A DNA stretch of 64,000 nt. Source: Adineta vaga. Taxonomy: Eukaryota > Animalia > Rotifera. This document shows positions 2,509 to 60,445 of the stretch, piece by piece (positions within the stretch are counted from its first letter, which is position 1; each line of letters begins with the position of its first letter). Where the stretch lies: NCBI GenBank assembly GCA_021613535.1, contig CP075492.1, positions 17,050,001 to 17,114,000 on the forward strand. The letters are read 5' to 3'. The notes under the pieces are model-generated. The model searched no databases. It saw nothing but the letters and a program-made list of their open reading frames with translations, and was not told the DNA's origin. A program made the position numbers and the translations under genes.

Positions 2509-3177
2509 TTAAGAAGTCTGAACAGCTACGTAAGGATGTACATAAGTTACTCTATTATTAGTTGTTGTCTTTAATTTTACGCTTCGATGGGAGTGTGACG
2601 AAGTATTTTTTAAATATATAACACAAACAACTATACCAATGAAGATGAGAAGAAAACATCCAATAAGAATAATGAAACTAGGTAATGAATTTGGTTTTTC
2701 CCATTGTACTTCATGTGTATTTGTTTGATTATAAAAACAAAAATCCGATGAATGCAACTAGATATAAAGATCAGTAGAGAATATAATGAAACAGTACTTG
2801 AAATATTTGGAAATTGCACTTACTTGATGTTGATCTGATGCACGAATTGCCTTGTCACATGTTGAATACGGCTTCCGACCAAAAATTGAAGCATATATCG
2901 TTTCAGTTTCATTACTTTCAGTGTAATAGCTAACAAACCATTTCGAAGAGTAACATGTATATGCATAACTTATACCTTCTCCATCAAAGATAAAGCAAGT
3001 TTTATCATAACAGCCTGGAATACTTTTAACAGTACATATTGCGATTCTATAGATTTTCTCTTTTAATATTTCGTCACGATATTCGAGGACACCGACTATG
3101 ACGCCACAAATGCTAAAAACAAGAATAGTTGCGCCAAATCCCGCGAAATACCAAGACGAAAAGAGACGTTGACACAT
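2509..3177 (-). CDS. Two-TM membrane protein with a Cys-containing loop (loosely BK-channel beta-subunit-like); 2 exons
   Basis: ORFs 2758-3177 and 2509-2757 are joined by a GTAAG..TAG intron. Both ends carry hydrophobic helices. Paralog at 17208. Confidence 0.65.
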
Positions 3178-7239: not shown

Positions 7240-7774
7240 ATGTATTGTATTTTAATCGTTGCTGTTATTCTCCTTGGTTTAGGTTAGTTTTAATCTTGGA
7301 GAAGAAGACAATTATTATTTTCTTTCCGCTTTAATTTCAGCTGAAGGTCAAGATCATTATCCACCTGTTGCATATGGTGAAGCATGTATTTCACAAGGAT
7401 TTAGTTCCAGTCATACAGCTGTTGATATTGCTTCATATGGTAAAAAACGTGTTAATTTGCATGCAATTTGGGATGGAACAGTAACTAGTGTTTGTAATGG
7501 CGCTGGTGATTTTGACAAAAGTCGTTGTGGAGATTGTGGAAATTCCGTCGATATTCGACATAATACTGTCAGTCTTCGTTATTGTCATTTGACTGCAAAT
7601 ACCCTTACTGTTTCTCCTGGACAACGGGTTTCACGTGCACAAAAGATTGGTGTTATGGGTACATCTGGTCTTTCAACTGGTGTTCACTTACATGTTATTG
7701 TTACTGAATTAAACAATGGTCAAAGACGAGACATTCGTACTCGTCTCGGTCTCAACGGTTGGCGTAGTTGTTAA
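7240..7774 (+). CDS. Secreted M23-family metallopeptidase (peptidoglycan-hydrolase-like), one intron at 7283-7340
   Basis: The spliced ORF reads MYCILIVAVILLGLAEGQ (signal peptide), HTAVD (HxxxD), YCHL and GTSGLSTGVHLH (HxH). Confidence 0.88.
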
Positions 7775-9049
7775 TGATTAAACAGAAATACTTCGAAGAA
7801 TTTTCTCTTAATTGATTTGTTCATAAAAAATATAATTGCTTGAGAAAATCACTATCTTTTGTATTTCAAAAGTTTATATATTGTAGAGTTTATTATTAGC
7901 ACCAGCATTTTCTTTAAGAATCTAAAATAAAAGGCCTATTGGCACGTTGAATGTTTGGCCAAAGTACTATACCATGTCAAAGGTTTAAGAAAAACAAGAA
8001 AACATAGAGAAAGTTTTTACTATTCATATATTTTCTTGACGAAATAGCTCTATAGAAAAAATAATACAAATGAAATACAAACAGATTAACATCAATAACA
8101 ATAAGTACATAAATATCTGACTAGATTAAAAATATTTTCATCAATTAATAGTTACCACAATATGGTAAACATACTATGTACATTATTAATCAAAAAAATA
8201 AAATGCTTATTACTTATTCGTTTGCGTACATGTCCGCACAATCTTCAAAAAACCATTATATTGAATCTATAGATATTCCTAATTTTACACGATATACATT
8301 GAATAGCCAACGAGAACAATTAGCTTTAATCCAATCATAATATTTCTGCTGATGACATTATATGGGATAAACATCTTCTGGATCATCATCAGCGATACAT
8401 TTTCCACAACGATTAGCACATATAATACCTTTAACTTTCTTTTTTTTATTCAGTCTAACTAATATCATTTATTGTTGATTCTTGTTTTCGTTTACGCATG
8501 AACTGTCTAAATCAAATTCGAATATAAATGCACATTCAGCTATTTGATTTCATTTCCAAAATAAATCCCGAAACTTGAGCTAGAGCTATTCCATATAATA
8601 GAAATAGATCTGTTTATTATCTATATGTGATTACACCTCACATAAAATGTTTTCCTTAAAGAACAGGAATAGTTTTATTTTGGCTGCTATCCATTATAAT
8701 TCAAAATTATGCACATATATAACTCTGCTTACAAATTATATTTATGAGTCACATAGTCTAAAACTTTATGGATTAAAAATAATGACTAGAAGCACTTTTT
8801 GAAAATCGTCATTTATATTCGACGTCGAATTAGACAGCTACTCCAGATAAAAGTTCAAAAGAAATCGCAGAAAGATCAAAATAATGTATATAATGTTTGA
8901 TACGAGTGTATCAAAAGAGAATAAAGCAAATGATTTTTATAGGTTTTTTCAAAATATTGTGAGCCAAGTCTCTATTTAGTCTAAATGTTTTGAAAGTGTT
9001 TGTTAAATTGATGTTGTAACGAAAAAAGCGTAACATTCGGCGTAAAGTG

Positions 9050-9338
9050 TTAACAATGAAACAAAACCCCAATACTACTTGTGCTATAGTGTGTCGTAAC
9101 TATGTCAGGTTTGGTATCAGAATTCACATCAATGACTCTCACTGCATATGGATTATCGCCAGTTGAGTAACCAACCTGAGAAGAAAATGTTCCGTTGCCA
9201 TTATTGAGAAGAACGCTAACTGTCTTTGAACCATAGTTTGCCGTGACTATATCAGGCTTGCTATCAAAATTCATATCTGCAAGTGCTACTGATTGTGGAT
9301 TACTATCAGCTGAGAAATTGAGTGAACTCAAGTACATA
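9050..9338 (-). pseudogene. C-terminal fragment of an FG-GAP/VCBS repeat protein, truncated at a junction site
   Basis: Repeats ADMNFDSKPDIVTAN..VSVLLNNGNGTF and DVNSDTKPDIV. The 5' end abuts the 9339 site. Confidence 0.8.
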
Positions 9339-9409
9339 TTGAGGCTGGTGGGTGTGGGTAAAGTTGCACCTTACTGTATCTCCACGCTCACCCGCACCCA
9401 CACCCTTAA
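9339..9409. repeat. Junction inverted repeat
   Basis: ttgaggctggtgggtgtgggt-~23 nt-cacgctcacccgcacccacacccttaa. Confidence 0.85.
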
Positions 9410-14240: not shown

Positions 14241-15400
14241 TGATTCTAACTTATTCATAATAACAATAGAACACGAGCAATGTTTATGTTTGTATAAATC
14301 CAAAGCAACTACGGCTCTATGTTAAAGATAATTCAAGTAATTTCAATAATTCGGATATTTTCTTAGACTAATCTATATATCTTTTATATTTTTATTCATG
14401 ATGGACATGTGTAATTTTCTTTTCTTGTAACATTTGTAAAGTTAACAATGATTTATGTATATTATATGTTATTATCTAATATATGAAACAATAAACTTAA
14501 TACTACATTAGACTCAGGTTTCAGAGAGCAGCACAGGGCTCTACATAAGGTTTGATTCTTATGTACTACATTTTTTTCTAAAATGAAATAAAATAGTATT
14601 GTTTATTTAAGTAACTTGAAGAATCCTTTTTACATACATAATTTGTTACTCTCAACATTTTGCTAAAAATAAAATCATTTGCTCTAGTCGTTTTCCAATT
14701 GTGATTTTTTATCCTGTGAGGAAACACGGAAAAAATTTATGTTTATTTTTTTATTATGGAATTACATTCACTGATGAAAAGAATATAAATGTTAAATAAA
14801 TCATTTTTTTTATTATTGATAGACATGAAACCATCCCAAATCAAAACTGTTTGACTTTGATGTATATCTAGTTATGGAAAGATTATGCGGTCAACCTATG
14901 CATCCACTGCAGTATGACGAACAACAATAGGCAAGCGCACCGTTACAATCTAACCCAGAATATCAATATTTGCCAGCATAAACGCAATTTTCTGGCTTTG
15001 CCGTGCAGTAACCATTGTAAGGTAGGTTCCAACAGTCTCTTCCAGAAATGACAACAAATAAAATTAAAATCTTGCTCATTGTCGATTGAAAATTACTTCA
15101 ACTTGACTTTACCTTCGTTTTATACTTTTTCTGCTTTTTATATACGCGTACGTATATATAATTGATTTGACTTCTTTCTCGCAAACCGCATTGATTGTTT
15201 TTTCGGAGAACTGTCTTAATCAATGAGAATGGGAGCAGATGGTTGGAAAATACAACCATTTTCAAGGAAATAATTTCTCGGTTACATATAGGATTTGGAT
15301 GTTCTCAATACTAGGAGTCTCAGGTGTAATAGTTTGCATAATTGTAATAACAGTACTCAATAATAAAGAGTATGAATATATACTTAGTCTATGAAAGATA

Positions 15401-15465
15401 TGAGAGTGAGAGTAGATATAGGTGAAATTAATGTTTAACTACGCTACCCACACCCACACCCTCAA
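15401..15465. repeat. Junction inverted repeat
   Basis: tgagagtgagagtagatataggtg-~21 nt-acccacacccacaccctcaa(gat). Confidence 0.85.
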
Positions 15466-16456
15466 GATTTTGTAAATGAAAACGAAAAAATTGCTCAGAC
15501 AATCAATACTTGGGTTGAAGATCAAACAAATCGATTAATAAAAAATTTACTCTCACCAAGTGATATTCGGGCAAATACACGATTAATTATCATTAATTGT
15601 ATTTATTTCAAAGTATGTACACATTTTTCATTTGAAAATATTCGTATTTCGTTTCTTTTATATCTATAAGGGAACATGGGTAGATCAATTTAATGAATAT
15701 GCAACTGATCATAATGCTAATTTTCATGAACTTAATGGTACGAATTCAAAAATTAGTTTAATGTATCAAAAACGAAAATTTGCTTATGCAGAAAATAAAT
15801 CCTTACGTATTCAAATTGTTCATCTTCCATATAAAAATAATAATCAAGATGTTCAATTTGTTTTTACAATAATTTTACCAAAGGAAGGTGTTTTATTATC
15901 AGAAATCGAACAAAAATTTGCATCGAAACCAAATTTATTAGAAGATGTACTTCATCAACAAAATACAACATTACAAAAATTATTGTTATATATACCGAAA
16001 TTTAAAATGGACTTTACATGTGAATTGACAACTGTTTTAGAACAACTTGGAATGAAAGATGCATTTGATGAAAATAAAGCAGATTTTAGTGGTATTGTTA
16101 ATAAACAAGATGATAGATTTGCTTTATTTATTAGTAAGGTAGAGTATATTGTTTGTTAGAGAAAGTTTTTGTTGATTTTATTTGATAATTTTAGGTTGTT
16201 CATAAAGCATTTATTGATGTGAATGAACATGGTAAGATCTGATCATAGAAATGAAATGAATAATTTTCAATATTTTATAGGAACTGAAGCGGCTGCCGCT
16301 ACAGCTATCACAGCAGAGTTATGCTGTGCACGACGACGACAACCACAGCCAATTTTATTTCGAGCTGATCGTCCATTTTTATTTTATATTCGAGAAGTTC
16401 GACAAAATCTTACGTTATTTACCGGTAAACTTCTTACCTGTACAAGTCTGTTGTGA
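15466..16456 (+). pseudogene. 5'-truncated serpin (spliced, 3 introns)
   Basis: DFVNENEKIAQTINTWVEDQTN..LIIINCIYFK|GTW, IPKFK, VVHKAFIDVNE, GTEAAAAT hinge and FRADRPFLF. The N-terminal part is absent. Confidence 0.9.
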
Positions 16457-16572
16457 TCATAGAAAAATAAATAAATATAAAGTAATTAAAAAGGATTTCA
16501 TTGGTATATCTTTTCTAATCTATTGAAATTTTTAGTCTAACATTAATTCATTCAGATCCTTTTCATTTCAAA

Positions 16573-16620
16573 ATGGTTGTGGATGTTAGATAGACGTAGT
16601 ACCCATACCCACACCCTCCA
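16573..16620. repeat. Junction inverted repeat
   Basis: atggttgtggatgt-tagatagacgtagt-acccatacccacaccctcca. Confidence 0.75.
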
Positions 16621-17207: not shown

Positions 17208-17640
17208 ATGGCTGATCGTCGATACATTTTTATTCGCATTTTTGGTGGTTCAACCATAATTTTAACATTAGTTGGTATTGCACTTTTCAGTGGAGAGAAA
17301 AGCAAAGAAAATTCTTACATTAAAAGTATATGTCTGATAGTGGATTGGGATGTTCAACAAAAGTCATGTAAGGGCAATAATTGCTATGCATCTGTATGGC
17401 TCGTTGATTACGATAATATATCGATTCAAGTGAATGATATTAGAGAACGTCGTCGAATTACAGGAATGTACTCTTATCAATATTCAAAGGCATCGGAGTG
17501 AACTTTGTAGATCGGTTCAATACACACTTGTTATTATAACAATCGAAATAATATATATGATGTTCAATGGAAGAAACCCAATTCAGAACCTGGTTTAATC
17601 TGTCTTCTCGTAGGAAGAAATAAGAATAAGAAAAAAGAAT
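17208..17640 (+). pseudogene. Stop-interrupted paralog of the 2-TM protein at 2509-3177
   Basis: Shares C..KxC..CYxSxWxVxY and, after the stops, CYYN...DVQWKKP. Confidence 0.6.
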
Positions 17641-17675
17641 ATCATGAAGGATAAGAGGATGGAATGCGAGAAGAT

Positions 17676-19049: not shown

Positions 19050-19973
19050 TTATTCTTTCGATTGAAAAAATTTCTTGCACGATTCGACGTATGCATTGGC
19101 TTTAGCTTCATCCGTACAAATTTGTGGTAATTGTTTTTCATCTTGATAAAATGCACCATTTTCCAGTTGATTTTCTTGAGTATCAATGACATACAAGATA
19201 GAATCGGCACCCAATGCTGCTGATCGAGCTCCTGTAGCATGATCATTAAGATCAGTGGCACAAAAACCTGGACATACAGCGTAGATGGATATTTTTTTGT
19301 CGTGACAATATTTAAGTGCTTCGACTCGAGTTAGAGCAATCAATGCTGCTTTAGAAACACCATATGCTGGAAGAGGTAAGTCTGGACTATATCCAATTTG
19401 TTCCAAATGATTGGATTCATATGCTGAAAGAAAATCTTCAACCAAATGATCCAGTTGTTCTGTTGTTAATGTTGGTGAAGAATACTTTTCTTGAAGATCT
19501 TTCGAAACAAAATATAATGATATTGGACCTACACCACTAGCAACATTGGCAACACGGCCATGTTCACGTAAAAGAGGAATTAAGTGTTCATTCAGTATTT
19601 TAACACCATAATAATTAGTTTCGAATGTTTTTCGAGCACCTTCAATTGTATTATCTCTCGCTGCAATTCCAGCATTATTAATAATGACATCTAAATGACC
19701 GCCATATTTTTGTTTAATTTCATTAGTAGCAGCGACAATGCTTTCTTTCGACGATGTATCCAATTGCAATAAATGTACATTTGATGGTGAGCCTAACTGT
19801 TGGAGAGCATCCTGACCACGTTTTATATCTCGACTACCAAGAAGAATAGTATTGTTATTGTTTGAAGTTGAGCCTTGAATGAGTTTTTTGACGACTTCGA
19901 AGCCGATACCTTTATTTGCACCAGTAACTAAAATTACACGTTTTTGTTGTTGTTGCTCTGTCATCGATGGCAT
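19050..19973 (-). CDS. SDR carbonyl reductase-like, paralog of 1472-2357
   Basis: TGANKGIG, INNAG, YGVSK and VCPGFCAT. Confidence 0.92.
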   Translation of the reverse strand: MPSMTEQQQQKRVILVTGANKGIGFEVVKKLIQGSTSNNNNTILLGSRDIKRGQDALQQLGSPSNVHLLQLDTSSKESIVAATNEIKQKYGGHLDVIINNAGIAARDNTIEGARKTFETNYYGVKILNEHLIPLLREHGRVANVASGVGPISLYFVSKDLQEKYSSPTLTTEQLDHLVEDFLSAYESNHLEQIGYSPDLPLPAYGVSKAALIALTRVEALKYCHDKKISIYAVCPGFCATDLNDHATGARSAALGADSILYVIDTQENQLENGAFYQDEKQLPQICTDEAKANAYVESCKKFFQSKE

Positions 19974-20269
19974 GTTGTTTATTGTGCGCCGTTCGACACA
20001 TTCTCTTTATATAGAAAGGAAAAATGTAACTTGTGTACTTTATAATACTTTCTGTTCGCTCGCGTGCGAGTTGGTTAAGTCATACAACGATAGCATTATA
20101 TAATAGACGTACGAGAGTACGTGATATTATTATATAAACTTTGTTCTACTATACGATCAAATGTGAAGTTAGAACAAGACTATATTGATATAAATAACGT
20201 TCATCGTGGATGACTCGCTTGACCCTCAACTGAATGATTAACAAAATGGATTTTACTGACTATTTCAAC

Positions 20270-24702: not shown

Positions 24703-27327
24703 ATGGGAAATGGAGTAACACGTAAGAAAGAGAAAATTGTTATTGAAAAAAGCATACGTAATTTTAATCAACATTCTATTCATACACAGTATACACCCAC
24801 AAATAGTTTAAATGCAAATCCTGTATCGGTGGGTGTAGAAAAATTAATCGATATAATTTGGTTTGATTCACGAAGTGTTCCACAAGATGATATTATTGAT
24901 ACTCAAACTACGAAACAAATTCTCTCAACTGCTCTTCAAAATTCCGAATTAATATGTTTCTCTGATATAAACTCATGTTTTGAATTTTTACAACAACATC
25001 GAAATTCTATTGAAATTCTATTTCTTGTTATTTCGGGTCATGATTTTATGAATCTATTCAATGCTTTAGACGTCGATCTTTTACGTCGTATCGATTCTAT
25101 CTTTATCTTTTGTTTGGTTGAGAAGCTACATGAAAATAAACAAGAATATCATGAAAAAGTGGTTGGAACATTCAGTGAACACATGAAGCTTCTACAATCG
25201 ATACAAGAACAAGCGATTATGATAAGCCAACAAGATCTTATAATGAAATATTATAATTGTACACAAAAGACTGCTCGTATGGTGCCAAGTTATGCGACAG
25301 GTGAATTTGTTTGGACTCGTGTAATTAAAGAAGCTGCTCTACAGATTCAAAAACACGTCCGAATTGTGAAACAGATGTTTGATCGTTTTCGGATACTCTA
25401 TCGAGATAATACCAAAGAACTTGACAAGATTGATCAATTCGAAAAGGATTTTCAGGTATTGTGTCAAACTATCGAAAGAAATACTATTGAAAAAAGGTCT
25501 GGGTGAGAGTGATGGTGAGGAAGCGAAATGAAATAATTCTATCTTTCGAATTATTTTATTCCGAAATTTTGCTTTCTCAATATTTACTTTATTTGATAGA
25601 GATTTGATTTTCATCCAAAGGAAATTATTCAATGGTATACGAAAGATTCTTTTCTTTATCGTATTATCAATCAAAGTCTACGAACACAAAATACTTCAGA
25701 ACTTATTATATTTTCACCATATATCGCAAATTTATGTCGTGCTATACGATCCTTACAAACGAAAGTTTATAGCATAATGACATTTTTTCGTGGATGTACA
25801 TTAAGTCGAACAGCATTAGATGAGTTCAATGCAAATATTGGATCATTACTTTCAATCAATTCATTTTTCTCTGCTACTCGTCAACGAGATTTCGCAAAAG
25901 GATTTGCTAGTTGTCATGCTTTGAATGGTATCAATACACTTGTGTCGATTATATTCGAAATTGAAGTCAAAAATAATAAACTGTCATTTTTCGCTGATAT
26001 ATCTATGTTAAGTTCGATTAACGATGAAGAAGAAGTTCTTTTTGATTTAAATGCAATTTTCACGATAAACAATGTTACTTATTGTGATGATGATGAATGT
26101 TGGATTATTCATTTAATTGCTGATGAAGATACTTATGTAAAACACGAATGTCTTTATAGAGAATTATGTGAAATATATGATCTAAATGCATCACCATTTA
26201 TGACAATTGGATTTAGTTTAATAATGATGGGTAACACACGAGAAGCTTATCGTCATGCAATTTCACTACCTCTATCATATAATTCAATGTCTGGATCGTC
26301 TTCATTATTTATTTTAACTTGTTTTATTGAATGTGATTATTCTAAAGCATTAAAGTTATTAAAACGAATATATGAATTTTGTGAAACAAGCAATTCTTAT
26401 GAAGTACATCATTGTTGGACATATGCAGCTTGTTGGATTGCTCATATTTTAGTTAGTTTAGGAGAATTTAAGTTAGCAAGTCAATATATTCATTCAATTA
26501 TCAAATATTATAGAACAATCAAACAATCAATATATTCGTATGAAATACCGATGTCACTTGAATATCTTGAAGATCTTGGAAAAGCTTTAGAAATGAATAA
26601 CGAAATCGAAACAAGTAATATGATTTTAGTACATTTTAATATTGAAAAAATGCCATTAGTGTCAAGAGCTATGCTACTACCAGGAATCCATACACGTTTA
26701 GCCCGCTCTTATCTGAAAGAAAATCGTATAAAGGAAGCATTTGATCATTTACAAAAAGCTGAAATTGAAGGAGAATTGTTACTATCTCATCATGCTCTAT
26801 TAAGAATAGATATTTATCTTATTTACGCATGTATATTTCTTTATAAGAACGAATTCGATCAATGTTCTTTATATTTAAATCAAGCAGAAACAATTGCTCG
26901 TATGAATCTATCTCAATCTTGTCCAAGTATTCTTGGCTGTGTCTATTTGCTAAATGAATTAATTATGATTTTACAAGAAAATCCTGATTCAAAAAATTTC
27001 CTATCATTGGCTCGCACAGCTTTCTTGAGAACTGCGAACTATATCGATGTTCCAAAAGTGATATTCACTCTTGAAAATATATGTAAAATTCATAGAGAGT
27101 ATCGAAAGAATTTAAATTCATGTATTACAACTACCAAGTTGGTGCAGTTTGTCAAGGATGCTTTTGAAATTTGTCGCATTGAACAGATTCTAGAAGGGAA
27201 AAGTTCTGAAAATGTGTATCGTCCATTATTAAATTATATACAACACATCGATACTTTACCGATTGAAGATCTACAAATAGAGAAACAAAAACAATTTATG
27301 TATCCTCTTCGTCGAAAGCACATGTAA
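24703..27327 (+). CDS. ADP-ribosyltransferase (R-S-E type) with helical/TPR-like C-terminus, spliced
   Basis: FFRG..LLSINSFFSATR..DEEEVLF, a receiver-like N-terminus (FLVISG, IDSIFIFC) and an intron from ~25458. Confidence 0.82.
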
Positions 27328-31030: not shown

Positions 31031-31730
31031 ATTGAGATACAAGCAAGATGAACTGTTTTCAATACTTGAATTTTCTCACACTCAATAAATGCATATTTTT
31101 CTGTAAATTTTCTCATGTTAACTTCAAATATAACTTAAGTATATTAGTAGTTTTTTTCTTTCCTTTTTTTTGTAATAATCATATTGCCTGTGACAAACTA
31201 CAGCATTTTTCAACAATTATTTCTTCAGTCAAACCATATTCTGATGTCATTGATAATAGCTTGAGAAAATAAGTATAAAATAAGAATAAGAGTATTTGAT
31301 CATTTCAAACGCACACGCTGCTGATAGATTTTTCCTCTACATTTTCAAAATATCTTCTCTGTAGTAGTTGTCGCAATAACATTTAACTAATGGAGAGAGT
31401 AAAAAATGTAATATTCCAATTACATTTATTTTGTTAGTTCAATTCGCGAAGTTACGTATTTTTCCTACAGTTTCTCGTAAGTAAGACTGTCAAATTGAAT
31501 ATTTTTTTCAATTTTTTAAAGAGAAATTTTGATGTACTCATAGCAACGAGTTTGTTGAAGATGCTGCTAATTGGCAGCCGACTTATACACGATAAAACTC
31601 ACATACGTAAAGAATAAAAAGATCTAGTTAAATTTCTTTTCTCCTTTTCATTCATAACAAGGAATTTTCAGAAAATATTCTTGTATATGTTAACTTATCG
31701 TTGCACCGTTATTTATTTCAGAAAGAAACA

Positions 31731-34700
31731 ATGGAAATTGTTCGACATCTTCGACAGTGGTTCAGCAATTTGAACTTCTTTTTCGACTTGAAAAAAGCTG
31801 AATTAACAGCTGAACAATTATTACGTCATCAACTACTCATTACACGTCTTTATTTAATCCTTTTGAGCGCAACATTGATCAGTCTGATTCTTTTCATGAG
31901 TTTAATCCTCAAAACAAATACGGAAACAGTGGTTAGACCTACACAAATTATGTTCGAACAACTACAAACTACCTACCGAGATACACTTTCATGTCCTTGT
32001 GAGCGAATTGCAGTGCCATATTCTAACTTTCTATCCATCAATCCAACGTATCATCAGGTAAGAATATATTTAAGATATGCATTCATTTCTTATTATTGCG
32101 ATAGATTTGTTCAAGTGATTTTATTTCATTTGAATGGATTCGATCATTGTTCAATGCGGAAACACCTCAAATGACTCCATTAGATTTTCGTCTCACAGCA
32201 GCAGCTCAGTTTCGATTATTAGGCACGATGTGTTCTTTGATGGAAGCCACTATGGAAGGTCTTAAAGAAGTCTTTTTAACAAAAGAAATTGTCACGAAAA
32301 ATACTCTTTCGTTCGTGTCTCTAAACAAAGAAGCTGATGCACTCATTGACAAGTTTCAAGTGTTTAGAGACATGTCACTCGTACCTGACGCAGCCTCTCA
32401 AGTGACAATAAAATTCATTCTTACCAGTCGACATCATCCGGCTTTGAACTTCAACTCATATCAACAGATGGCTCCTAGTTCGACTCTTTATCAACAGCAG
32501 GATACATGTTACCCAATTCGCGACGACATAGTCGATAATGCAGTAAATATGAGGACGAATATTGCATAGTTATATTTTTCACCAATTAATGTCTATATCT
32601 TTAGGATTTGTACAGTGACTTCGAATTCTGCAATCCTTTTTCTACTATGACATACAAGGCAGGAATCTACAATTGGAGTGCCGAAGACAAAGATGCGTCG
32701 TCACGTACCGTTCCAATTCCGCCAGCTGTGTACATCGTGCCTGGTATGCATGTTGGATGTACACCATACTATGCTCTCATCCCTTCTACTCTCCAATGTT
32801 TCTTTGATTCGATGTGCATCAACACCACAACACAATGGATCTCGGATCTGCTAGTATCTCAATGGCCAAAACCATTAAATAGATCATTGTTATCGAAATA
32901 CTTAGTTAATAGTACGATCGAAACCATTTATAATGAAATGATGACTGATAACTGGGAAATCAGGAAGAATTTCTCAGGATATTATGCCACTTGTGCTCCT
33001 ATAGAATGCACTTATACTTATGTGACACGTTCGAATTATCTTTACGTGTTGATTACACTCATCGGTTTGTTTGGTGGTCTGACAGTTGTGCTTCGTATTG
33101 TTTCACCATTAATTATAACACAATGCCATCGCATTCACAAACTATATACAGATATAAGACAATGGCTGAATCATTCGAAACATATGCATCAAAGTAATGA
33201 TGCAAGACATTCGTCGTTACCATATTTTCCATTTCTATTTTAGAAAAAACAACTGATTTCGGCTTAGACTCCTCATCAATTCCAAAAGCGAAGATCGAAA
33301 CACCGAGTATATTCGCCGGTACATAACTTCATCATTGCATATTGTCTCCTGATTTTTTCATGCAGGTTGCCATGCTCGGATTAACGGCTTGATTACTTAT
33401 TTCAAAACTCAATTGTTATCGATAAATCTCTTTGAAGTATGTAGATATTATTTTGTTTATACTATTTATCTATTCTCTTGCATTTTTCTAACGTTCAATA
33501 TCAACATGAATCTAATTATATATGATCTATACTAGGATACACTGACAAATCCACTTCATGGTATCCGTGCTACACGTGTTTATGTCATTCTACTTTTGAT
33601 AAATATCGCTATACTGATTTTCTATACATCACTCGCAGAGTACACGCAATCTATCATAGTGTCGAATCCAACGCTTGATGTTTTTGAAAAACTACAGGAA
33701 ACTCATTCTGAAACTCTGGTGTGTCGTTGTTCGAATGTAGCAATTCCACATAATAAAATAATTACGATCTCCACTCCCACTTTCCATCAGGTAAGTGACA
33801 CATACCACTGGAAAATACAATATTGACACTTTATAATATGTGAGAGAAATTTAACACTAAAATTAATTCATTTTCTTATGTAGATTTGTTCAAGTAGTTT
33901 TGTACCTTATGTCAATGGTGATGCTTGGATATCGAACTTCTTTATAGTGCATTTTGACGATTGGTCGTACTACCAGCCACTTTTAGAAAATGATTTTCGT
34001 GCTGCTGGACTCAGACTATTCTTCATGATCGGGCTTGCCTGCCTTTTTCCCAATATATATGTCCCTAGAAGTACTGCTGCATTTATTACGGATGCATTTC
34101 TCAGTTCTTTAGTTCTTACACGTAAGTAGAAGCCTTATATTCTATATTTACATTGTTCTTCTAAGATTGCAAGTTTTGTCACACGCCTTGAATATAGATC
34201 GATAATCTTTGCATACGTAAATCTATGTCATGTCTATTAGGTGTCGAATTTCAATTGCGTATATCAAGTCTTGTTAACGAATTTCAAGTTCGAACAAAAC
34301 GCGGTGGTTTTATGATAATTTCACTTGGAAGTATGACGATGATGCTCAGTGGAACAGAGAGTGAAATTCGTTATCAATCATTTCAAGTCAATAATAATTG
34401 GTTACTTCGACGTTATTCACCAGCACCAGCTGCATTTAATGAATGTGCATGTAGTGTAGCATATGATTGTCCAGATCCTGTCTGGTCTAGTGGTCAATTT
34501 ATATGTAATTATGGCAACAATTGCACTGCTGGAACTGTTATTTGGAGTATACCAGGTCTAGTCAAGTCGTGCACATTCTTCGAAACTATGTTATCAAGTG
34601 ATCTTCGTTGTTTTTTCAATCAAACGTGCGTTAACATCACTCTATCCATGTACAATGTTGACATGCCAATGCGAAAACCCTTGCCCGCAAACACTCTTGC

Positions 34701-36447
34701 CATGAAAGCTTTAGATAGCTCTATTCGATCACCATTTTTACCTAACGATAAGATGCGCACACTTTTAGAGGAAATGATGATCATAGATTGGAATTTTAGT
34801 GTCAATTATAGTGGCTATTATACCGCTTGTGCACCTGCTAATTGTGTGTACAGATTGACAGAGCGATTCAATATCATATATGTAATTACAACTATACTTG
34901 GTCTATTTGGTGGTCTTAATATTAGTCTCAAAATACTTATTCTCGTTGTAGTTCGATTGATTATCTGGACAAAAAAGATTCGTGGTGAACAACAAGTTAT
35001 GGAACATCGAGGTAACATCCATGAGTGTTTTTTGCTTTTACAATTGACACATTATCGATCATTTCAGATATTTTGTTTCGACTCCGTCCAATATGGTCTG
35101 TTGTCAAACAAGAATGGAATACATTGAATCTTTTCAAAAAAGAAAGTCTTCATAGTGGAATGATCAACAATCCGCGACGATCGATCCTTATTTCAAGTCG
35201 AATTTATGTTCTAATACTTATTTTTACCATCATAGCTCTCGCACTCTATAATGGTTTGACAACAACAACAGTTTCTCTTACGTTGCAATCACCTACTCTA
35301 GAAATATTTGAACAGATACATGCGAAATATGCCTCTACCTTTTCGTGTTCATGTCAACATGTTTCTGTACCATATGGTATATTTATTTCAGTCGCACCTA
35401 CTTATCATCAGGTATGATTTGTGCGTGTAGTTATCAAAATTTTTTGTAATTCATATATTTCAGATTTGTTCGAGTGATTTTATCGAGGAGAAATGGACGA
35501 CTACATTATATGGATATGGACCTCAAGCAAATAGCTATTCACAACTAGATCGACCTTTGCTCAGTAAACAGCATCAAATATTGAAAAAGTTATGTTCAGA
35601 AGCCAAATTGATTGTAGCTGATGCTATATTTGATTTTTACAAGTCATTACTGATCACAGCATCAGCTTTATCGCGTGCTTCTTTTCAAATGCAAATATCT
35701 GCGATCATCCAAAATTTCATTGCACAAACACCAATTACTTTTCGACGTCTGTTGGCATTTATAACTGAAATGGTAGCAAGTCTCTTAATACCCACAGCCT
35801 TCAATAATGATTGGTTGCCAGAATATGGCAATTCATCGAATAGTTATACGATTCGAAATAAGCCGCGTACATTCAGCAATAGTACATGCAACTGTGTCAT
35901 TTCACGTACTTGTCAAGAACCACTACGTATTGGTCCACCTGATCTTGTAATACCTGGTCTTGTTGTTGGTTGTTATCCTATTGATGGATTACGAATGTCA
36001 ACACTCGAATGCTTTTATTCATCAACGTGTATTTCTTCGATCATCAATTTCTTCGATTATTATACAGAAATAAATGGATCATTACCAGTGAATTTTGTTC
36101 CTCCTTCGATACCTGTGATTAACGTAAATCCTCTCAGTAGTTCAATTCCATCACGTTTCTCAATTACCAATCCGATCACATATCTCATTGATGATCTATT
36201 TATTGAATATTGGTCAAAAACAAGTGTGTACGAAAATTACTATGCTGCATGTGCACCAAGTTTATGTCAGTATCAGTATGTGAGACGTAACGATTTAGTA
36301 TATGTAATAACGTCAATTTTGTCTTTATATGGTGGAGTAACTATTGGATTGCGATTCATTATTTGGAAAACATTATATATCTATAAAAAGTTCAAAGCAA
36401 ACCATGTCACTGTACAACCATTCGTTATAAATATGAACACAGCATAG
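31731..36447 (+). CDS. Multi-exon membrane protein of three tandem ~430-aa units (TM - Cys-rich ectodomain - TM)
   Basis: Each unit has TRxY-TM, CxC, PTYHQ|ICSS, PG..GC..L.S.L.CF, YY..CAP..C.Y and GLFGG-TM. The intron in HQ|IC is conserved across units. Confidence 0.8.
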
Positions 36448-36455
36448 ACTAACTC

Positions 36456-38925: not shown

Positions 38926-38968
38926 TTGGGTGTGGATCAATATAGCTCTTCTTCACCCACACGCTCAA
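38926..38968. repeat. Junction inverted repeat overlapping a GPCR stop codon
   Basis: ttgggtgtgga-tcaatatagctcttctt-cacccacacgctcaa(gatg). Confidence 0.8.
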
Positions 38969-39933
38969 GATGCTGGTATGATGGGCCATCTTTGAAGACT
39001 GAATAGACGACGGAGTTTATTACGACAGTCCGGTAATGAAATACCCACAGCATAAGGTAAAAATATGCATGTTCCAAACTGCCAGTAACCGAGCACATTG
39101 ATTTGTAAAACGACATTAATTGGTTGAGAGCCATTTATTAATTGCGAAAGAGGATTGATAGCATAGGGAATATCAAAAAACAAGAAGACAACCGAAATAG
39201 TTATAAGATGCAATGCCATTTTCTTATATCTACGTAATTCAATGACTTGTCGTCTGATATATTTGCCTGTTATGGTGCGAATCAGAAGAGCAGCACTAAA
39301 ACCACCAATGATGAAACACGGAGCTACTTGATAAAGCAAAGTTTCAACGTTGAATAGACTTGGAGCAAGTTGAAATACATAACAAGGATAACCACAGAAA
39401 GCATAATTAAAATTGAAATTGTTCTCGCATGGATAAAAGAAAATGACGTAGATGTAATAAATAACTGAGTAAATAACAATGCTTGCAAGAGGTAAATAAT
39501 GAAGAAGAATTCGACGATTTAATGTATTCAACCAATGCATATGAAAGGTAAGCAAGTGTCGTTCAATAGCTACCCAACACATAAGCAGATTACTGGCATT
39601 ATACGTGCAGAGATCAATAAATAGCCAAGCAAGACATGTAACATCCGTCGATGGAGTAGTAGAACCTGATCGAAGAAAGTCTAAAACGAAGGATACATCA
39701 ATCGTAAGTACAATAAAGTTGCATGCTAAAAGAACCATGATACTATGATTTCTTAATTTTTGTCGCATATTTTGATTGTTGAGCAGATGAAACCCAACAA
39801 ATAGATAAGCAGGTAAAGCGAGAAGTTGAAATGGTTGAAGAATGGCGTATGTGATTCTTCGTGAAGAAGCAGAATTTCCAGCAGCAAATGCATTTTCGGT
39901 TTCAGTTGTAAATGTTATTGTGGTTGTATTCAT
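38965..39933 (-). CDS. Orphan rhodopsin-like 7-TM GPCR, intronless
   Basis: Seven hydrophobic segments, LRNHS, CLAWLFID and WVAIERH (DRY-like). Confidence 0.88.
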   Translation of the reverse strand: MNTTTITFTTETENAFAAGNSASSRRITYAILQPFQLLALPAYLFVGFHLLNNQNMRQKLRNHSIMVLLACNFIVLTIDVSFVLDFLRSGSTTPSTDVTCLAWLFIDLCTYNASNLLMCWVAIERHLLTFHMHWLNTLNRRILLHYLPLASIVIYSVIYYIYVIFFYPCENNFNFNYAFCGYPCYVFQLAPSLFNVETLLYQVAPCFIIGGFSAALLIRTITGKYIRRQVIELRRYKKMALHLITISVVFLFFDIPYAINPLSQLINGSQPINVVLQINVLGYWQFGTCIFLPYAVGISLPDCRNKLRRLFSLQRWPIIPAS

Positions 39934-40640
39934 TTTTCCAGTTCTATCAACTACAAGAAAGTGAAGATACTATTGAAAAAACTGTTAATGTAATTCTCGT
40001 GAAGTTAAATGATAAAAAAATTTCTAAATTGACACAAAAAATAAATGTTTAGACGGTTTATCTTAATTAAAAATTAATTGAGAGAGAATTTGATAATTTT
40101 TAATGAAAGTAAGTGCAGTACGGATGTCGTGACGTTTCGTTTAACTTTCTTACTGCATTAATTGCATTGTTTACACACGTAATATCCGCCTATATGCGTT
40201 ATAATGATAGAGAAAAAGAAAAAAGGACACGTATATTATAAAGAAATTAGAAAGGACAAAATGTATGTGTACATGTTGTCATAGAGAGAAAATTTTCTAT
40301 AACCATGTTAGAAAATAAGTACATTAAGTTTAAGTTGAACTATATAATTTACAATCGGATCAAAAATTTAACTTTTTACTTTACATATAGAGAAGTACTG
40401 ATTAGAATGTTCTGACTTTATTTTCAAAGTGATATTATACAATTGACGTTGCATTTGTATTTGAAGTCGAATTAGACAACTAATAGCATTTTGATGAAGA
40501 TGTTATCCTTGTTTTTTTCATTTATATTCATCAATACATTAATTGTCTCAACTATAAAATTCTTGATTAATCCATTTGTTGAATTTTCTTTTTTCTTATT
40601 CCATTTTCTATTTGTACTTGGAATGCAGAGCTCTGAAGAA

Positions 40641-43260: not shown

Positions 43261-43552
43261 GGAATATCTAAGCTTTATATCCATGTGAATATGGTTTAAA
43301 AAGAACTTACATTCAGTATCACTACGCTGAATTGGATAAAAAACAGTTACGAAAGGAAAATAATATATTTTACTAAGGTTCTCACATGTTTTAATTTTCT
43401 TTTCGACATAGTGACTTTATTGTTGTCCTCTATATACTGTGTTTTTCATATTTGTGAAAAAATTAGCATTTTTTATGCAGTTCAGCAGTAATACTTAATA
43501 TAAGTTCTTTTCAAACCATATATTCATATGAATATAAAGCTTTAGATATTCC
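43261..43552. mobile_element. MITE-like element with ~70-bp terminal inverted repeats
   Basis: ggaatatctaagctttatatccatgtgaatatggtttaaaaagaacttac pairs with the reverse complement at 43481-43552; no clear TSD. Confidence 0.7.
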
Positions 43553-48022: not shown

Positions 48023-51000
48023 TTAGTTGATGACGGGAACTATACGATTGTTCTGTTTACGTTTTGTAATCCAGAAAATAAGTTGAATTATGAATTTTGA
48101 GAATATTTTTAATACAATCGTTATACCACCATATAAACCCATAATAGTTGTTACAATATAAGGTATATCCGAACTCTGAATGTATGAGTAAGTACACTGC
48201 GACGAATGACATTGTTCATAATATTTTCCGTAAGAATGACTGACATCCCATTTGTTAACGAATAATCGATCGATCATTTCTTGAACTGTTTCATTTATTT
48301 GGAAGAAGCTTTCTGATAATAAAGTTGAATTCAGTACCTTAAAAGTATTCTCATTTGATGTTGGTTCTCCAAAAGTATTTGTTATTAAATTCAAACATTG
48401 TTGGTTGTAAAAGCATTCTAATGATGATTGTAATAATGATTCAAGTGGAAAACAACCAATGAACAAACCAGTCAACGTTGAATTTAAATTATCATTAAGC
48501 ACTGCTTTTTCTGAACATTTTAATGAAACAGCGCAACTGCATGAATTACCGTACGTTTGAGGATTTGTATAAATAGGCGCATTTGCATAAGTACCGAGTA
48601 CAGTATACTTCCAGTTTGTTTCGTATGCTGTTATAAATGCATTACCATGAATGAGACCGCTGACCATAGCCAATGAGTTTTTGAATGTTTCAGGCATTGC
48701 TTTTTTAAAGGAATTAACAGCTGTATCAATTTGAATTTGTAATAAATCAGAAGATATTAATTGAGCACTGATTAATTTTGTTGAATAAAATTGTATAAGA
48801 CTGTTGTTAACAGCTTCCTGTGCTTCTTTACATAATGATGAAAGAATTTGAAATTGAGCTGATGCTGTAGCATGATAACTTTTCTCATGAATTCTATTTT
48901 CATCATATAAATATTCAAACCATTGTTGATTGACAAAATCCGATGAACATATTTGATGATAAAATGGATTAAGTTCTATGAATCGATTATAACCTATAGA
49001 AATAGTAGAACAAGGACACGTAATTGTAGTTGGATATTTCATTCGTAAATTATCATATTGATTTAGGCTATGTAATTGTACTGTAATAGTTATTAATTTT
49101 TGATTTAATAAAGTATATGATAGAAGAATAGGAAAACTAATGATTAAAATAATTATATAAAATCTAGTTGAATAAAGTTGTTTTTTAATCTTATGATTAT
49201 TTGTTGAACGAGTTTGAAATAAATTCAAATGTACTACTTTTGTTTTAATCATTCGAAAATTTTGCCAAGCTCGATTAGACATTGGTGTGCCTAAAAAGAA
49301 TTGGTTTATCGTTGAAAATCAAAATCAAAACATATACGTTACTTATTGTCTGTATTGGTTTTCGTCTGATAAAATTGATAATAATTGATACAATAATCTT
49401 CATAACAATGGTTAAACCTCCATATATTGCAATTAATTTTGTTAATATAGTTATACTACTTGTTTTTTCTTCCACAGTATATGCGCAATAAGATGGTTGA
49501 CATTGATTATAATATTGACTGTAAGAATAGATTTCATTCCAATTTTCGACAAATAAATTATTAACAATTTTTTCCAATGGTGTATTTGTTTGATATTGAC
49601 TTAATATGGATGTATTCAATGGTTTTAAATGTTTATATATGATAGCATTTGGATTCATAAAAGACTTTAGTTTACTTACACAATCTTCGCTATAAAAACA
49701 TTCTGCTGTTGATAATAATAATGTATCTATACCAAAACAAGCTTGAAATATTCCTGGTATATGATATGGACCGGTAATACTATAAAAAATCATTGGTTGT
49801 GTGCATGATATATTAGTGGCACATGAACAATCACTCAAATTACGTATAACTGCATGGTATTTTACACCATCATTGTCATAAAAAGATGAGAAAATACTAT
49901 TTGTATCTCTCAGATTAACTAGTTGATTTCCAGATAGAATCCGTCGAATTAAATTTATACGAAGTCGAAATAATCCTTGTGTTGTACTTTCGAATGATTT
50001 AATGTATAAAGTTATTTCGCTATTAAAAATATCAGATGAAATAACTTCTGATGTTAAATATTCATTATCATTGAAGATGATTAAACTGTTAATTACTGTG
50101 TCATAAGTTGTGTCACATAATATTGATAAAAAATAAAAAAATGAACTTGATATCTGCTTGAAATTATCCGAATGGTCTCCCGCAGGATCGTTCCAATAAG
50201 TATTATCAAGCCACAATTCAGACACAAATATACTGGAACATATTTGATGATATGTTGGTTGTAATGAAATAAATTTATTGTATTTAATTGATATATGACT
50301 ACAAGGACATTCTAGATTATCAAATGAATTATTTGTAAGTTGTTCATATTGATTTTGTGTCGGATTATCAATAGTTATGATTTTGGTTTGCCTATCTAAT
50401 GATAAATATACACAAAACATACTTAATAAGATTGGTAATGCAATAAAATACACTCTTGTTGATAACATTTCATTTTGTTTTATATGTTCGTCATTTGATT
50501 GACTGTGGTATATATTTACTTTCTTAATAAAATTGACAATTTGTTCCATTAACTGGTTCCAACGATTTTTCATAGATACTATTTAATATGAAAACATGAT
50601 AGAATGAAAAATAATAAAGGAGCGTCAAATTTCTCAAGGACATGCGTTAACTATTTATCGCATGATTAAGCTCTAGTAAAAATGCAACAACTCAACCATG
50701 GCAAGTCACGAACTGCTATAGCCATGGCGTTAGTGTGAATTTTTATTCTCTCTTCTTTCTAATTGTGTCAATTATCACACTACATAAAATCATCTGATCA
50801 ACTGCATGTCATCGTCTTCATCTCAACATTGAACATAGAGACGACTCTCGCATCTTCAAACGTAACTGACGAGTTTGTTACAGACTACTCTTTATTATTA
50901 CGTGTTTTGTTATCCATACTGTATCATTCATCAAATCGATTCTTCTTACAAATAAAACATTGAAAAATAAAATGAAATGAAACTTACCTTTCGATAAAAT

Positions 51001-52317
51001 AACGTTCGTTTGTGCTTGGTGCTTTTGACGTCTCTGGAGAAAATGAGCAACGATAAGCAGAATAATAAATGGTAAAACACGTCTCAATCCACCATACAAA
51101 CTAATAATTGAGGCCAAAATAGTAGTCCAACTTTGTCCTATTTCATTTGTATATTGACAATATAATGGTTGACATTGATCAAAATAATCATTAAAAGATT
51201 TATTTACAATCCATTCGTGAATAAATAAATCATTTATTAATGTTTCATAACTTGTTTGTGATGGAGATAAAGATTTATTTAATTTAGAAAATGAATCAAT
51301 TGATGTTGTTGTGTAATTAATATAAGTACCAATTTGATTCAAACATGTTTCTTCAAATAGACATTCAATTGTTGAATGAAGTAACGATTCAACAGGAGCA
51401 CATCCAACGGCTACACCAGGTAATAAAAATGTAGCATTAACATAATAAGTATTTGAAGACTCTGACATGTCATGGTATGTTGGCTCAGATCCAACATAGT
51501 CGTATCGAATTATATTAGTATAAATACCTCCTGACAATTCACAGACCATCGAATCGATACAAATACAAATGAAGTATTTGCCCTTGGTTTCATAGTAAGG
51601 AATATTATCTGACCATACATTGTCAATATTGTCATATTCACAACATATAACGGCATATTGTGTTCCTATTCCTGAAATTAAGAGCTGTTCAAGAAGTATC
51701 CGTCGAATCACGTTCAATGTGCCGAGACATAATGGTGGTGTGGTTCGTTTGAATAGTTCAATAAATGAGTTTGTTTGAATATTAAATGTTTCCATAGAAA
51801 TCAGTTGATTTGTGATAAATTGACTGGAATAAAATTGAGTTAGACTATAATTAACAGTCTGTTCTGCTTGTTCGCATAACATACGAAGAATTTGAAATTG
51901 GCCTGAAGCACTATGACGAAAATCAAGTTGAAAATAGTAACTACTATTTTCATAGAATAAATAATCAATCCATTTTTGACTAACAAAATCTGATAAACAA
52001 ATCTGATGATAAACTGGTAAAATCTGTAGAAATCCTCCATATGGAATAGCAATCCGTGCACATGAACATTTTAATGTATTGGGATGTTGTTCGATCAATT
52101 CTTGATACTGTTCTATAGTTGGTTTATGAACAACAATGGTAGTTATGTGAGTATTTGATTTTATATAGAAAACGTATGCATACAAAGCGGCCATAAGTAA
52201 TATAAAATAAACTCGACTTGATAGACGTTCCTTTCTCATAGTATTTTCATCATCTGCTTCTGAGTTGTAGAAATTTTGATCGAGCATATATTGACGAATG
52301 CGATAATATCTATGCAT
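48023..52317 (-). CDS. Second three-unit TM / Cys-rich ectodomain / TM protein, one unit per exon
   Basis: ORFs 50878-52317, 49275-50573 and 48023-49282 each carry the motif set seen at 31731-36447, with plausible GT..AG introns between units. Confidence 0.82.
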
Positions 52318-52484
52318 CTTGTTCTTTGCACTACTGTATTATACTATATCTAAAATTCAATAATATTCACTCTCTCATCAACCCACCCACCATGAAGATG
52401 TGGCACTATGAGATAATACATGAAAAACATGCCATGCAGAACGCATAATAAAACTCGAAGAAGAAATAGATAAAACAGTTTAAC

Positions 52485-52546: not shown

Positions 52547-53589
52547 TTTCCGAAACTCGGATTTCTGTCGCGCAGTTTGCAAGGGGACAGAAACCCTTGC
52601 ATAGTTTTAAACGGAAAGAGGGTTTATTAGAGGGTAGATCACATTCACAACCTGATCTGGGCGCCATAAACTAATATTGAGGGTTCACGATTCGCCGATT
52701 TTTTTTTAGTGCAAAACACAATGGAATCTGCTGTTACAAATAATCTATTAATAACAACCAAACTAAAAATATAATATGAAGAGGGGAAACACTGAATACT
52801 TTCCAAAGTAGACTACAGAACCAAAAAGGTTCTGACAAGCAATACTTTTTTCAGAGGAAACATAATCATTGCACTCTATAGAAAATTGTTGTATGAGCAA
52901 CTTAAATAAATGAGATGAAATTTCTATTATTGAAAGTATTAAATTAGTTTGCACTGAAAGGAAAAGAAAAAAAATTGAAACTTTTTGAATAAGATGGAAA
53001 CTAAGTAGTTAAATCCTATCGATTATTCTCAATAACATCCTATGTTGCTAAAAATATTTCATTAAAAAATTTGGAAAACACGAAATGGTTTAGTTTTCGA
53101 ACTAAAGCGACTATCTCGAGAATACATGAATATATATTAGAAAACAAAGTTATATTGGAAAATAGAAGGTCTTTTAATGAAGAAAGATGTAAATTGTCAC
53201 GGAATAGAAGTGAATATTCTCGATGTAGTCGTACTATGCTGTCCAACTGTTTATATATAAGAATCAAGTAACAGTTTCGACACCATATTACTCTTACAAA
53301 TGGCGGTTCTACTGAAAAACATACTTTTAATACTCGCGCTATGCTAGAACGGTTTTGCTCTATATACATAGTTACACACACACACTCTCTCTCTCTCTCT
53401 TTCTCTCTCTGCTCTTCAAAACGGGAAGTAACTCTTAACTACTGCCTTTTTTTATACGTAGCAATAAATGTAATGCTGTTGTACGTCATTTCTTGAGTAG
53501 TTCAAAAGATTGCCTTCCAATCACGTACGTCATTTCTGTTTTACTTGTTGTCAAAATATCAAGTAAGATGTAAATGTATATTGGATGCA

Positions 53590-54210
53590 TTCATGGGAAA
53601 CCAATCAGTTTTCAGAAAAAATAATTTTTTCTGTTTTTTTTTCTTCTAGTTAGTTCTATAGTTGTTTGAAAATAGAAATTGATTAGAAAGAATTCTTGAG
53701 CGGTGCCTGAAGTAGTGTTGATCCACAGTGTATTTAGGAAATAACTATGATACGATTAGATAGCTACAGTTATTTGAAGAAGTACATATTCTTAGCATAG
53801 AGAGATGAGTGTTGGAGTACAAAAACCTCCTAAAGGTTCTCTTTTTTCGATGGATCTTAACTATAGTATCAGAACTAAAACAAAATTTTCCAAGTAAATG
53901 TTTTAAATTCGTTCTAGCTGAGATTGTCAATCTTTTGGTTATAATCCATTTTAAAGAGAAAATCTTTAGAAGTTTTGCTATTGTTTAGTATTCATCTCTC
54001 TATCCCAAGAATACGTATTTCATTGAATAACTGAAACCATCTACTCACATCGTAATTTTTCCAAGACTACACCTTGAATCAACACTACTTCAGGCACCGC
54101 TCAGGAATTCTTCCGAACCGATTTCTATTTTACAACGGCTATAGATTGAACTAGAAGAAAAAATAATCAGAAAATAACTTTTTCCAGAGAAGTGTTTGGT
54201 TTCACATGGA
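53590..54210. repeat. ~620-bp diverged foldback palindrome
   Basis: For example gaattcttgagcggtgcctgaagtagtgttgat (53690) pairs with atcaacactacttcaggcaccgctcaggaattc (54078). Pairing continues inward to near 53895. Confidence 0.85.
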
Positions 54211-60299: not shown

Positions 60300-60445
60300 A
60301 TTTTCTTTTTTTTTCTTCTCTTTTGACATATATCATATGATGGTGGGACGGCAAGACGATGATACTGGTAGGAGATTTATTTATTCTTCTTCCTCCGTCC
60401 CACTATTATATGATATATGTCAAAAGAAAAGAAAAAGACGAAATC
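60300..60445. repeat. Hairpin with ~40-50-bp arms
   Basis: cttttgacatatatcatatgatggtgggacgg ... ccgtcccactattatatgatatatgtcaaaag. Confidence 0.85.

Follow-up and report, generated by a model that had tools for sequence, protein, structure and literature searches.

How does a gene come to begin in the middle of its conserved domain, at the very edge of a short tract of telomere-like repeats? The question is raised by a serpin fragment of the bdelloid rotifer Adineta vaga, which lies in a 64-kb stretch of AT-rich eukaryotic DNA with introns of about 55 nucleotides (the whole stretch analysed, hereafter the window), and it bears on the open question of how bdelloid chromosomes broken by desiccation take up and rearrange DNA. 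The features of the locus are as follows.

15239..15394, plus strand: putative hydrophobic open reading frame of 51 codons, ending just before the left arm
15401..15413, plus strand: left arm, TGAGAG TGAGAG T, two degenerate G-strand telomere-like units pointing inward (from the arm parse)
15414..15445, unstranded: spacer (linker) of 32 nucleotides between the arms
15446..15464, minus strand: right arm, A CCCACA CCCACA CCCTCA, which on the minus strand reads TGAGGG TGTGGG TGTGGG T after the serpin end
15464..15468, minus strand: shared pentamer AAGAT (minus strand ATCTT), common to the serpin E-D codons and the outer consensus of the arm; inferred priming end
15466..15612, plus strand: serpin coding piece 1, with no start codon; Pfam Serpin positions 117-170 of 370
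15613..15670, plus strand: serpin intron, 58 nucleotides, GT..AG
15671..16138, plus strand: serpin exon of 156 codons
16139..16194, plus strand: serpin intron, 56 nucleotides, GT..AG; paralogue contigs from runs X11 and X16 skip 56 nucleotides here
16195..16231, plus strand: serpin exon of 37 nucleotides
16232..16280, plus strand: serpin intron, 49 nucleotides, GT..AG
16281..16456, plus strand: last serpin exon, with the hinge GTEAAAAT, its own reactive-centre loop and the stop codon
16454-16456, plus strand: serpin stop codon TGA
16466..16471, plus strand: AATAAA
16574..16620, unstranded: next head-to-head site, with a degenerate G arm, a spacer of about 15-21 nucleotides and a C arm

The serpin fragment spans 15466-16456 as an open frame of 275 codons that is interrupted by three GT-AG introns and, once spliced, contains no internal stop. 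The frame, which encodes the peptide DFVNENEKIAQTINTWVE, opens at the last bases of the arm, where positions 15460-15471 read CCTCAA GAT TTT, as an earlier note on this DNA had described; that note was also right that three introns are retained (58, 56 and 49 nucleotides, each GT..AG), and its estimate that the next site follows about 120 bp beyond the stop and AATAAA compares well with the 117 nucleotides measured from the stop to 16574. Matches to the Serpin profile (PF00079) come in three pieces of 51, 108 and 38.5 bits, against a curated cut-off of 27, and enter the profile at position 117; a complete Serpin domain of about 370 residues with a start codon is absent, and the earliest methionine is residue 80 of the 275. 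The nearest relatives are from A. vaga and A. ricciae (76-78% identical), and for the largest exon, which is 74% identical to its A. vaga relative, A. ricciae and Rotaria are also among the best relatives.

Residue 1 of the fragment aligns at residue 125-127 in seven of eight bdelloid serpins, the first ~124 residues being absent, and for a shorter A. vaga model, P0001, whose reactive loop differs from that of the fragment, the alignment begins at residue 82. All eight homologues have L-E|D-F at the break point. When they were compared with the whole 64 kb by tblastn, the only serpin match was 15463-16450 and nothing better than E 0.36 was obtained for the N-terminal part that is missing, in agreement with the earlier claim that no serpin N-terminus stands upstream.

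The hydrophobic frame at 15239-15394 has no Pfam match and no homologues. For splicing of this frame to the serpin, the donor visible by eye gives the wrong reading frame, and the idea that a relative of the gene at 17208 was cut here, leaving this frame as its 5' part, is not supported (BLASTP E 0.05, profile i-E 20). The latter gene (17208-17645) encodes a small membrane protein of an unnamed family with eight relatives, and has a stop at codon 98, beyond which more family-like sequence follows, so that either the stop lies in an intron or the gene is a pseudogene. Positions 2812-3120 on the minus strand hold a weak relative.

The serpin junction is real and no assembly chimera. It is crossed with 0 differences by one contig each in runs X2 (14700-15507) and X4 (14700-15503), which come from two DNA studies, either of which could be related to the source of the window, and which reach 42 and 38 letters past 15465, respectively. 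Two runs that are RNA by guess cover the serpin mostly with divergent paralogues, none of them across the junction among the matches listed, and have no bearing either way. Positions 14874-15395 are represented by a single contig in X2 (depth 13.8) and in X4 (depth 83), and long X2 contigs at 31-46 kb have depths of about 20-24, a hint, depth not being copy number, that the junction is present on one haplotype only. Both runs also hold another serpin copy from elsewhere in the genome, with an internal deletion of about 320 nucleotides, that matches 15502-15627 and 15978-16127.

What makes the serpin an unusually clear case is that an intact paralogue reveals the sequence as it was before the break. 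Among the matches listed, contigs of this paralogue (X2, X4 and X11) align with the window from 15464, inside the last repeat, and read ...GCT GAT ATG AAA CTT G (A-D-M-K-L-E) upstream, their loose end beyond 15464 being ...GATATGAAACTTG. At the break, the paralogue has CTT GAA GAT TTT where the window has CCT CAA GAT TTT. Because the paralogue reads GAA GAT TTT there, AAGAT is the serpin's own sequence, and 5 nucleotides are, as judged from the paralogue, common to the serpin and the arm. On the minus strand, the serpin end ...AAAATCTT is followed directly by GAGGG TGTGGG TGTGGG T. The site is thus a breakpoint, as had been proposed, with the serpin cut and the paralogue alignment ending in the last repeat. 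The homology to a parent gene had been predicted to end at 15466; on the contigs it starts at 15464, which puts the break at 15463/15464. At the break, the nearest paralogue, which is not the direct parent, has AAGAT, and a G at 15463 where the arm has a C. This paralogue is about 12-13% divergent in coding DNA (20 of 150 and 50 of 434 bases differ), and the direct parent was not found among the contigs compared; given that divergence and the G at 15463, the view that AAGAT derives from the flank rests on conservation in the family and on one chosen case.

In a simulation of random substitutions, an equally long frame stays open in 8% of cases after 54 changes and in 0.6% after 108, which suggests that the gene was probably intact while most of the divergence arose and that it was cut relatively recently. 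We regard the fragment as probably a young, non-functional pseudogene of a serpin paralogue. The earlier note had held that the fragment was captured as DNA rather than as cDNA, and here the introns do oppose ordinary retroposition, but dispersal of genes with introns is reported for the Penelope elements of A. vaga (PMC3846280), and the claim is weaker than it was put in the note.

The arm beside the serpin is one half of a pair of telomere-repeat tracts arranged head-to-head around a short spacer. The telomere repeat of A. vaga is reported to be TGTGGG (PMC8494291), and the insert carries this host repeat as TGTGGG units in its arms; among 25 parsed arms of the window, the outermost unit is TGAGGG in 16, and the inner units are mostly TGTGGG. 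Hand curation yielded 22 such paired sites in the window, each with a G-rich arm, a spacer of 9-32 nucleotides and a C-rich arm, with 2-4 repeats per arm, a density of about one site per 3 kb and a spacing of 1-7 kb. Overlapping arm matches number 39 in the window and 0-2 in 20 shuffles, and when a profile built from the window itself is used, 54 are found, with 0-3 in 10 shuffles. The pattern had 0 matches in viral contigs, and a search of the 64 kb against Rfam gave three weak matches (E 0.42-0.72) and no family. The site at 36454 is kept, with a small arm indel, in an X2 allele that is 0.5-1.7% different from the window.

A second property of the sites is a preference in the flank. Of the 44 arms at the 22 sites, 37 have ends that can be parsed, and seven of these have AGAT directly outside, against a background of 0.56%. 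The earlier note had seen in the coincidence of the serpin GAT codon with the arm consensus a sign of microhomology or a preference at the break, and both this enrichment and the AAGAT of the paralogue lend weight to that suggestion. At the site 38926-38967, a 7TM-receptor-like ORF (38965-39969, minus strand) ends in ...GCA TCT TGA, its last codon and stop forming the ATCT-TGA edge of the site, and the ORF's own stop codon may have served at this break.

The window spacers are mostly unrelated to one another, with the exception of a common family, TTAAGAG..(A/G)G.CT, found in four of the 22 sites (13921, 36457, 45906 and 47654); of the spacer pair scores, the top one is reached by 1% of 300 shuffles and the third by none. 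For the serpin-site linker, a contig of 132 nucleotides found in X11 and X16 (both RNA by guess) resembles 15409-15468 at 49 of 60 positions, with 11 differences and other flanks, and is a candidate donor.

The regular, palindromic look of the sites, their spacing of 1-7 kb and the presence between them of several genes of foreign type, such as the M23 peptidase at 7283-7774, recall integrons, or another kind of site at which gene cassettes are shuffled by site-specific recombination. An attC-type array of an integron consists of hairpins conserved in structure, cassettes of whole genes and an integrase. No such array is present here: hairpin covariation is lacking, the fold of the serpin site is no better than that of shuffled sequence (z +0.8), the broken genes lie in both orientations and no recombinase is found among 47 window ORFs. 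The match between the two arms of a site is no better than that between arms of different sites (p 0.87 and 0.40; p 0.77 with hand-set centres; tests of low power), with sites 45906 and 52485 being two whose own arms match each other better than average, and selection for a hairpin was rejected first with crude and then with hand-set centres. The arms are head-to-head host telomere repeats that match their own partners no better than foreign ones, and not arms of the recombinase type, and the integron-like explanation is the least probable of those considered here.

Some further features of the window are recorded for completeness. Two short-chain dehydrogenase genes (1401-2357 and 19050-20006) are 59% identical and inverted; clusters of paralogues at 31632-36447, 48023-52338 and 56992-59687 comprise an unnamed family of about 430 amino acids in two arrays and four tandem genes of about 140 amino acids; and an ADP-ribosyltransferase/TPR gene lies at 25600-27327. 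Longer inverted repeats that lack telomere units, and are possibly MITE-like, are found at 53589-54211, 43261-43552 and 60310-60436.

A scan of metagenome contigs for the bare paired pattern, specified without AGAT, returned at least 119 loci. Among the loci listed, 73 AT-rich ones were kept after two duplicates had been dropped, and 41 GC-rich ones are different. The AT-rich loci come from few samples and we infer that they are of bdelloid origin; two of those listed have a gene family in common with the window, and seven bdelloid proteins gave 0 matches to them. The GC-rich contigs (41 loci listed) have head-to-head TTAGGG/TGAGGG tracts with a GGTTAGCTAACC-like centre in 28 of the 41, a similar structure in another lineage. 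Among the AT-rich loci listed, 139 ends were examined; of the 65 arms that end cleanly, 21 have AGAT just outside, and for the 66 complete sites the figure is 21 of 132 ends, the background being 0.6% in both cases. The units in these arms stutter, with counts among the loci listed of 367 for TGAGGG, which the search pattern favours, 100 for TGGG, 65 for TGTGGG and 33 for TGTGAGGG. The spacer AAAGAGAAG recurs with unrelated flanks in 33 of the 73 AT-rich loci listed, and the common spacer of the window begins like it. Within this spacer family (29 of the 33 sites complete), arms range from 13 to 135 nucleotides, and neither the correlation between the two arm lengths of a site (rho 0.26, p 0.17) nor the linkage of AGAT at its two ends (p 0.16) is significant, these tests being of low power.

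Two individual loci are instructive. In L055, an inverted duplication, nearly perfect beside the arms, has the site exactly at its centre, and the two arms are attached to one and the same base. In the case of L061, ATCT is present where a 74%-identical homologue, L078, has GAGT, and the ATCT may here have arrived with the insert, contrary to the reading that it served as a primer.

The serpin is not the only gene cut at such a site. Of 112 ORFs that abut an arm, 106 were scanned for Pfam domains, four low-value metagenome frames having been dropped and two window ORFs scanned separately; 101 of the 106 have no recognisable coding flank, and the five with a match (the serpin, an FG-GAP piece, a kinase in L028, a carboxylesterase in L098 and a GMC oxidoreductase in L081) all start or stop in the middle of a domain or repeat array at the arm. 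The FG-GAP fragment, with two repeats, occupies 9053-9343 on the minus strand, its start coinciding with the arm of the site at 9346. It is likely a second beheaded gene in the window, in which five bdelloid homologues found matches only within 8984-9400 (tblastn); no close parent was found, the best relative being 57% identical. In L028, CDK1 positions 143-175 lie to the left of the site and 193-218 to the right, collinear and with 17 codons replaced, the right piece being weak when taken alone (E 0.06). Continuation of the gene across the site was not seen for the serpin, the FG-GAP piece, the L098 carboxylesterase or the L081 oxidoreductase, the last two looking one-sided over far flanks of only about 210 and 100 nucleotides. 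The earlier suggestion that the serpin fragment was captured is weakened because both sides of the L028 site belong to one gene; there is no sign that the fragment moved, and two breaks with loss of the 5' part that lay between them would explain it just as well.

The finding of sites inside broken genes also bears on the idea that they are programmed signals for chromosome breakage, where a cut in the spacer would expose a telomere seed to either side in somatic cells and the loss of the serpin would be a rare mis-join in the germline. The geometry would supply each fragment with a ready seed, the spacer core is conserved, oriented and purine-rich, and the breakage motifs of nematodes and ciliates provide an analogy. 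Signals of this sort are hard to reconcile with sites that interrupt broken genes and in many cases are decayed, with contigs from whole-animal DNA that run straight through them, and with the literature searched, where no report of DNA elimination in bdelloids was among the papers listed. We regard programmed breakage as very improbable.

Shared spacers at unrelated flanks are predicted by a mobile hairpin element as well, and count against our preferred reading. Such an element, non-autonomous, would insert at ATCT/AGAT-like targets without duplication and grow its arms by slippage, with recombination between copies having exchanged their flanks and beheaded the serpin. It would be dispersed and multi-copy, as the sites are, with the same internal sequence at unrelated loci (33 of the 73 AT-rich loci listed and four of the 22 window sites), could insert collinearly as in L028, and would allow for arms that differ in length when the window is compared with the X2 allele or with further copies. 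Against it, the hallmarks of a MITE, namely target-site duplications, matched terminal inverted repeats and a uniform length, are all missing. Duplications of 4-8 nucleotides flank 0 of 66 metagenome sites, with one site having a duplication of 3 nucleotides and three having one of 2 nucleotides, and the L028 insertion replaces 17 codons. Sites have no fixed length and their ends look independent, as evidenced by the range of arms within one spacer family, and most window spacers are mutually unrelated. The dominant unit also changes, from TGTGGG (inner units) in the window to TGAGGG in the metagenome loci, the latter favoured by the search pattern. Finally, there is no transposase domain in the 47 window ORFs, and no empty-site joint among the 15 of 28 joints listed. 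Helitrons, for their part, are recognised by a 5' TC, a 3' hairpin plus CTRR and insertion at A/T, and no RepHel domain was found among the 47 ORFs. A hairpin element is an unlikely source of the sites.

What has to be accounted for is a cut gene, a real junction, units of the host telomere repeat, a preferred flank, sites without duplications and shared spacers. Our preferred reading, to which we give a probability of roughly two in three as a whole, is that the serpin junction is the scar of a DNA break, one end of which would have been lengthened by telomerase and then joined to another end capped in the same way. A double-strand break, plausibly caused by desiccation, would have left the minus-strand 3' end ...AAAATCTT, whose terminal ATCTT would pair with the template for the repeat together with the bases that adjoin it on the 3' side (predicted RNA ...CCCUCAAGAU...), after which GAGGG TGTGGG TGTGGG T would be added to the serpin end. 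A second end would be capped independently, and the two G-tailed ends, being unable to anneal to each other, would be joined via a linker of 10-30 nucleotides copied from a shared template, which may lie in the telomerase RNA, on the 5' side of the template region, or be an older scar or an RNA transcribed from one. If both ends came from one break, the result would be a collinear gene interruption, as in L028, whereas ends from different breaks would join unrelated pieces, as for the serpin. The unequal arms, whose lengths are not significantly correlated, the AGAT, which is not significantly linked between the two ends, and the stuttering units suggest that the arms were synthesised independently.

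Scars of this kind would mark old breaks at single-base resolution, and they make testable both the sequence beside the telomerase RNA template and the notion that telomerase takes part in joining as well as in capping. A more speculative version of the scar reading, which we hold only tentatively, is that bdelloids possess a dedicated form of telomerase-templated end joining, in which caps are primed by ATCT(T) and a linker copied past the template attaches, by folding or annealing, to another capped end. Gene-sized DNA of any kind, also of foreign origin, would be strung together in this way. If this were true, the scars would spell out the template of bdelloid telomerase RNA, predicted as 5'-CUUCUCUUU ACCCUCA AGAU-3' in species of the TGAGGG type, and would provide a molecular mechanism for horizontal gene capture in bdelloids.

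The same scar could instead have been written by the reverse transcriptase of an Athena/Terminon element, with an RNA ending in ACACCC or TCACCC annealing to the G-tail and the spacer representing an abortive short cDNA. Terminons are described as having 3' ends with (ACACCC)n or (TCACCC)n that pair with G overhangs, and as having host genes between copies (PMC6431247), and Athena fragments are reported at deletion breakpoints (PMC13564844). The window itself speaks for a different writer, in that the 47 ORFs hold no reverse transcriptase domain, no Rfam hammerhead appears in the 64 kb at E <= 1, a search that may miss minimal hammerheads, and the combination that marks a Terminon, an RT ORF with a hammerhead beside ACACCC, is not seen. 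The arrays described in the available text are, moreover, head-to-tail, whereas the window sites are head-to-head. We consider this explanation quite improbable, while noting that the pairing of ACACCC/TCACCC with G-tails and the presence of host genes between copies are points of real likeness between Terminons (PMC6431247) and the sites, which differ from them in orientation and in a window with no detected RT or ribozyme.

In the literature searched, supplements and the primary Athena/Terminon papers aside, paired head-to-head telomeric scars are not described in rotifers, and the novelty of the paired form in this group is provisional. Related observations do exist for bdelloids, for which neotelomeres at A. 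vaga deletion breakpoints (PMC13564844) and short telomeric stretches in subtelomeres (PMC2861651, PMC7943196) are reported. These neotelomeres and interstitial repeats share with the sites the same repeat, an association with breakpoints, and a setting of rearranged subtelomeric DNA rich in horizontally transferred genes (PMC13564844, PMC8494291, PMC2861651). They are presented in the available text as caps or 'short stretches', whereas here the tracts come in inverted pairs, with families of spacers between them and ATCT as a putative priming flank. The interstitial telomeric sequence (ITS) left by the telomere fusion at human 2q13 has the same head-to-head orientation (PMC7215372); the sites differ from it, as it is described there, in having 2-4 repeats per window arm, many sites per locus and a defined linker, with no fusion of whole chromosomes.

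By analogy, the closest known systems are the short ITS and the TERC-ITS of vertebrates, for which in-register nucleotides and head-to-head telomerase insertions at breaks are reported (PMC7215372, PMC8537989). As in the bdelloid sites, a few host telomere repeats are found there at a repaired break, with 3' bases that are in register and occasional extra templated sequence, and with small deletions, of which the 17 codons lost in L028 may be a bdelloid counterpart. Membership of the TERC-ITS class would hinge on a telomerase-RNA origin of the bdelloid linker, which is putative. Several differences are also apparent from the available text of these sources: the head-to-head arrangement, seen in three of 41 TERC-ITS, is the rule in the bdelloid sites, which occur at about one per 3 kb and often join unrelated gene pieces, and in which the register extends past the repeat itself, into ATCT.
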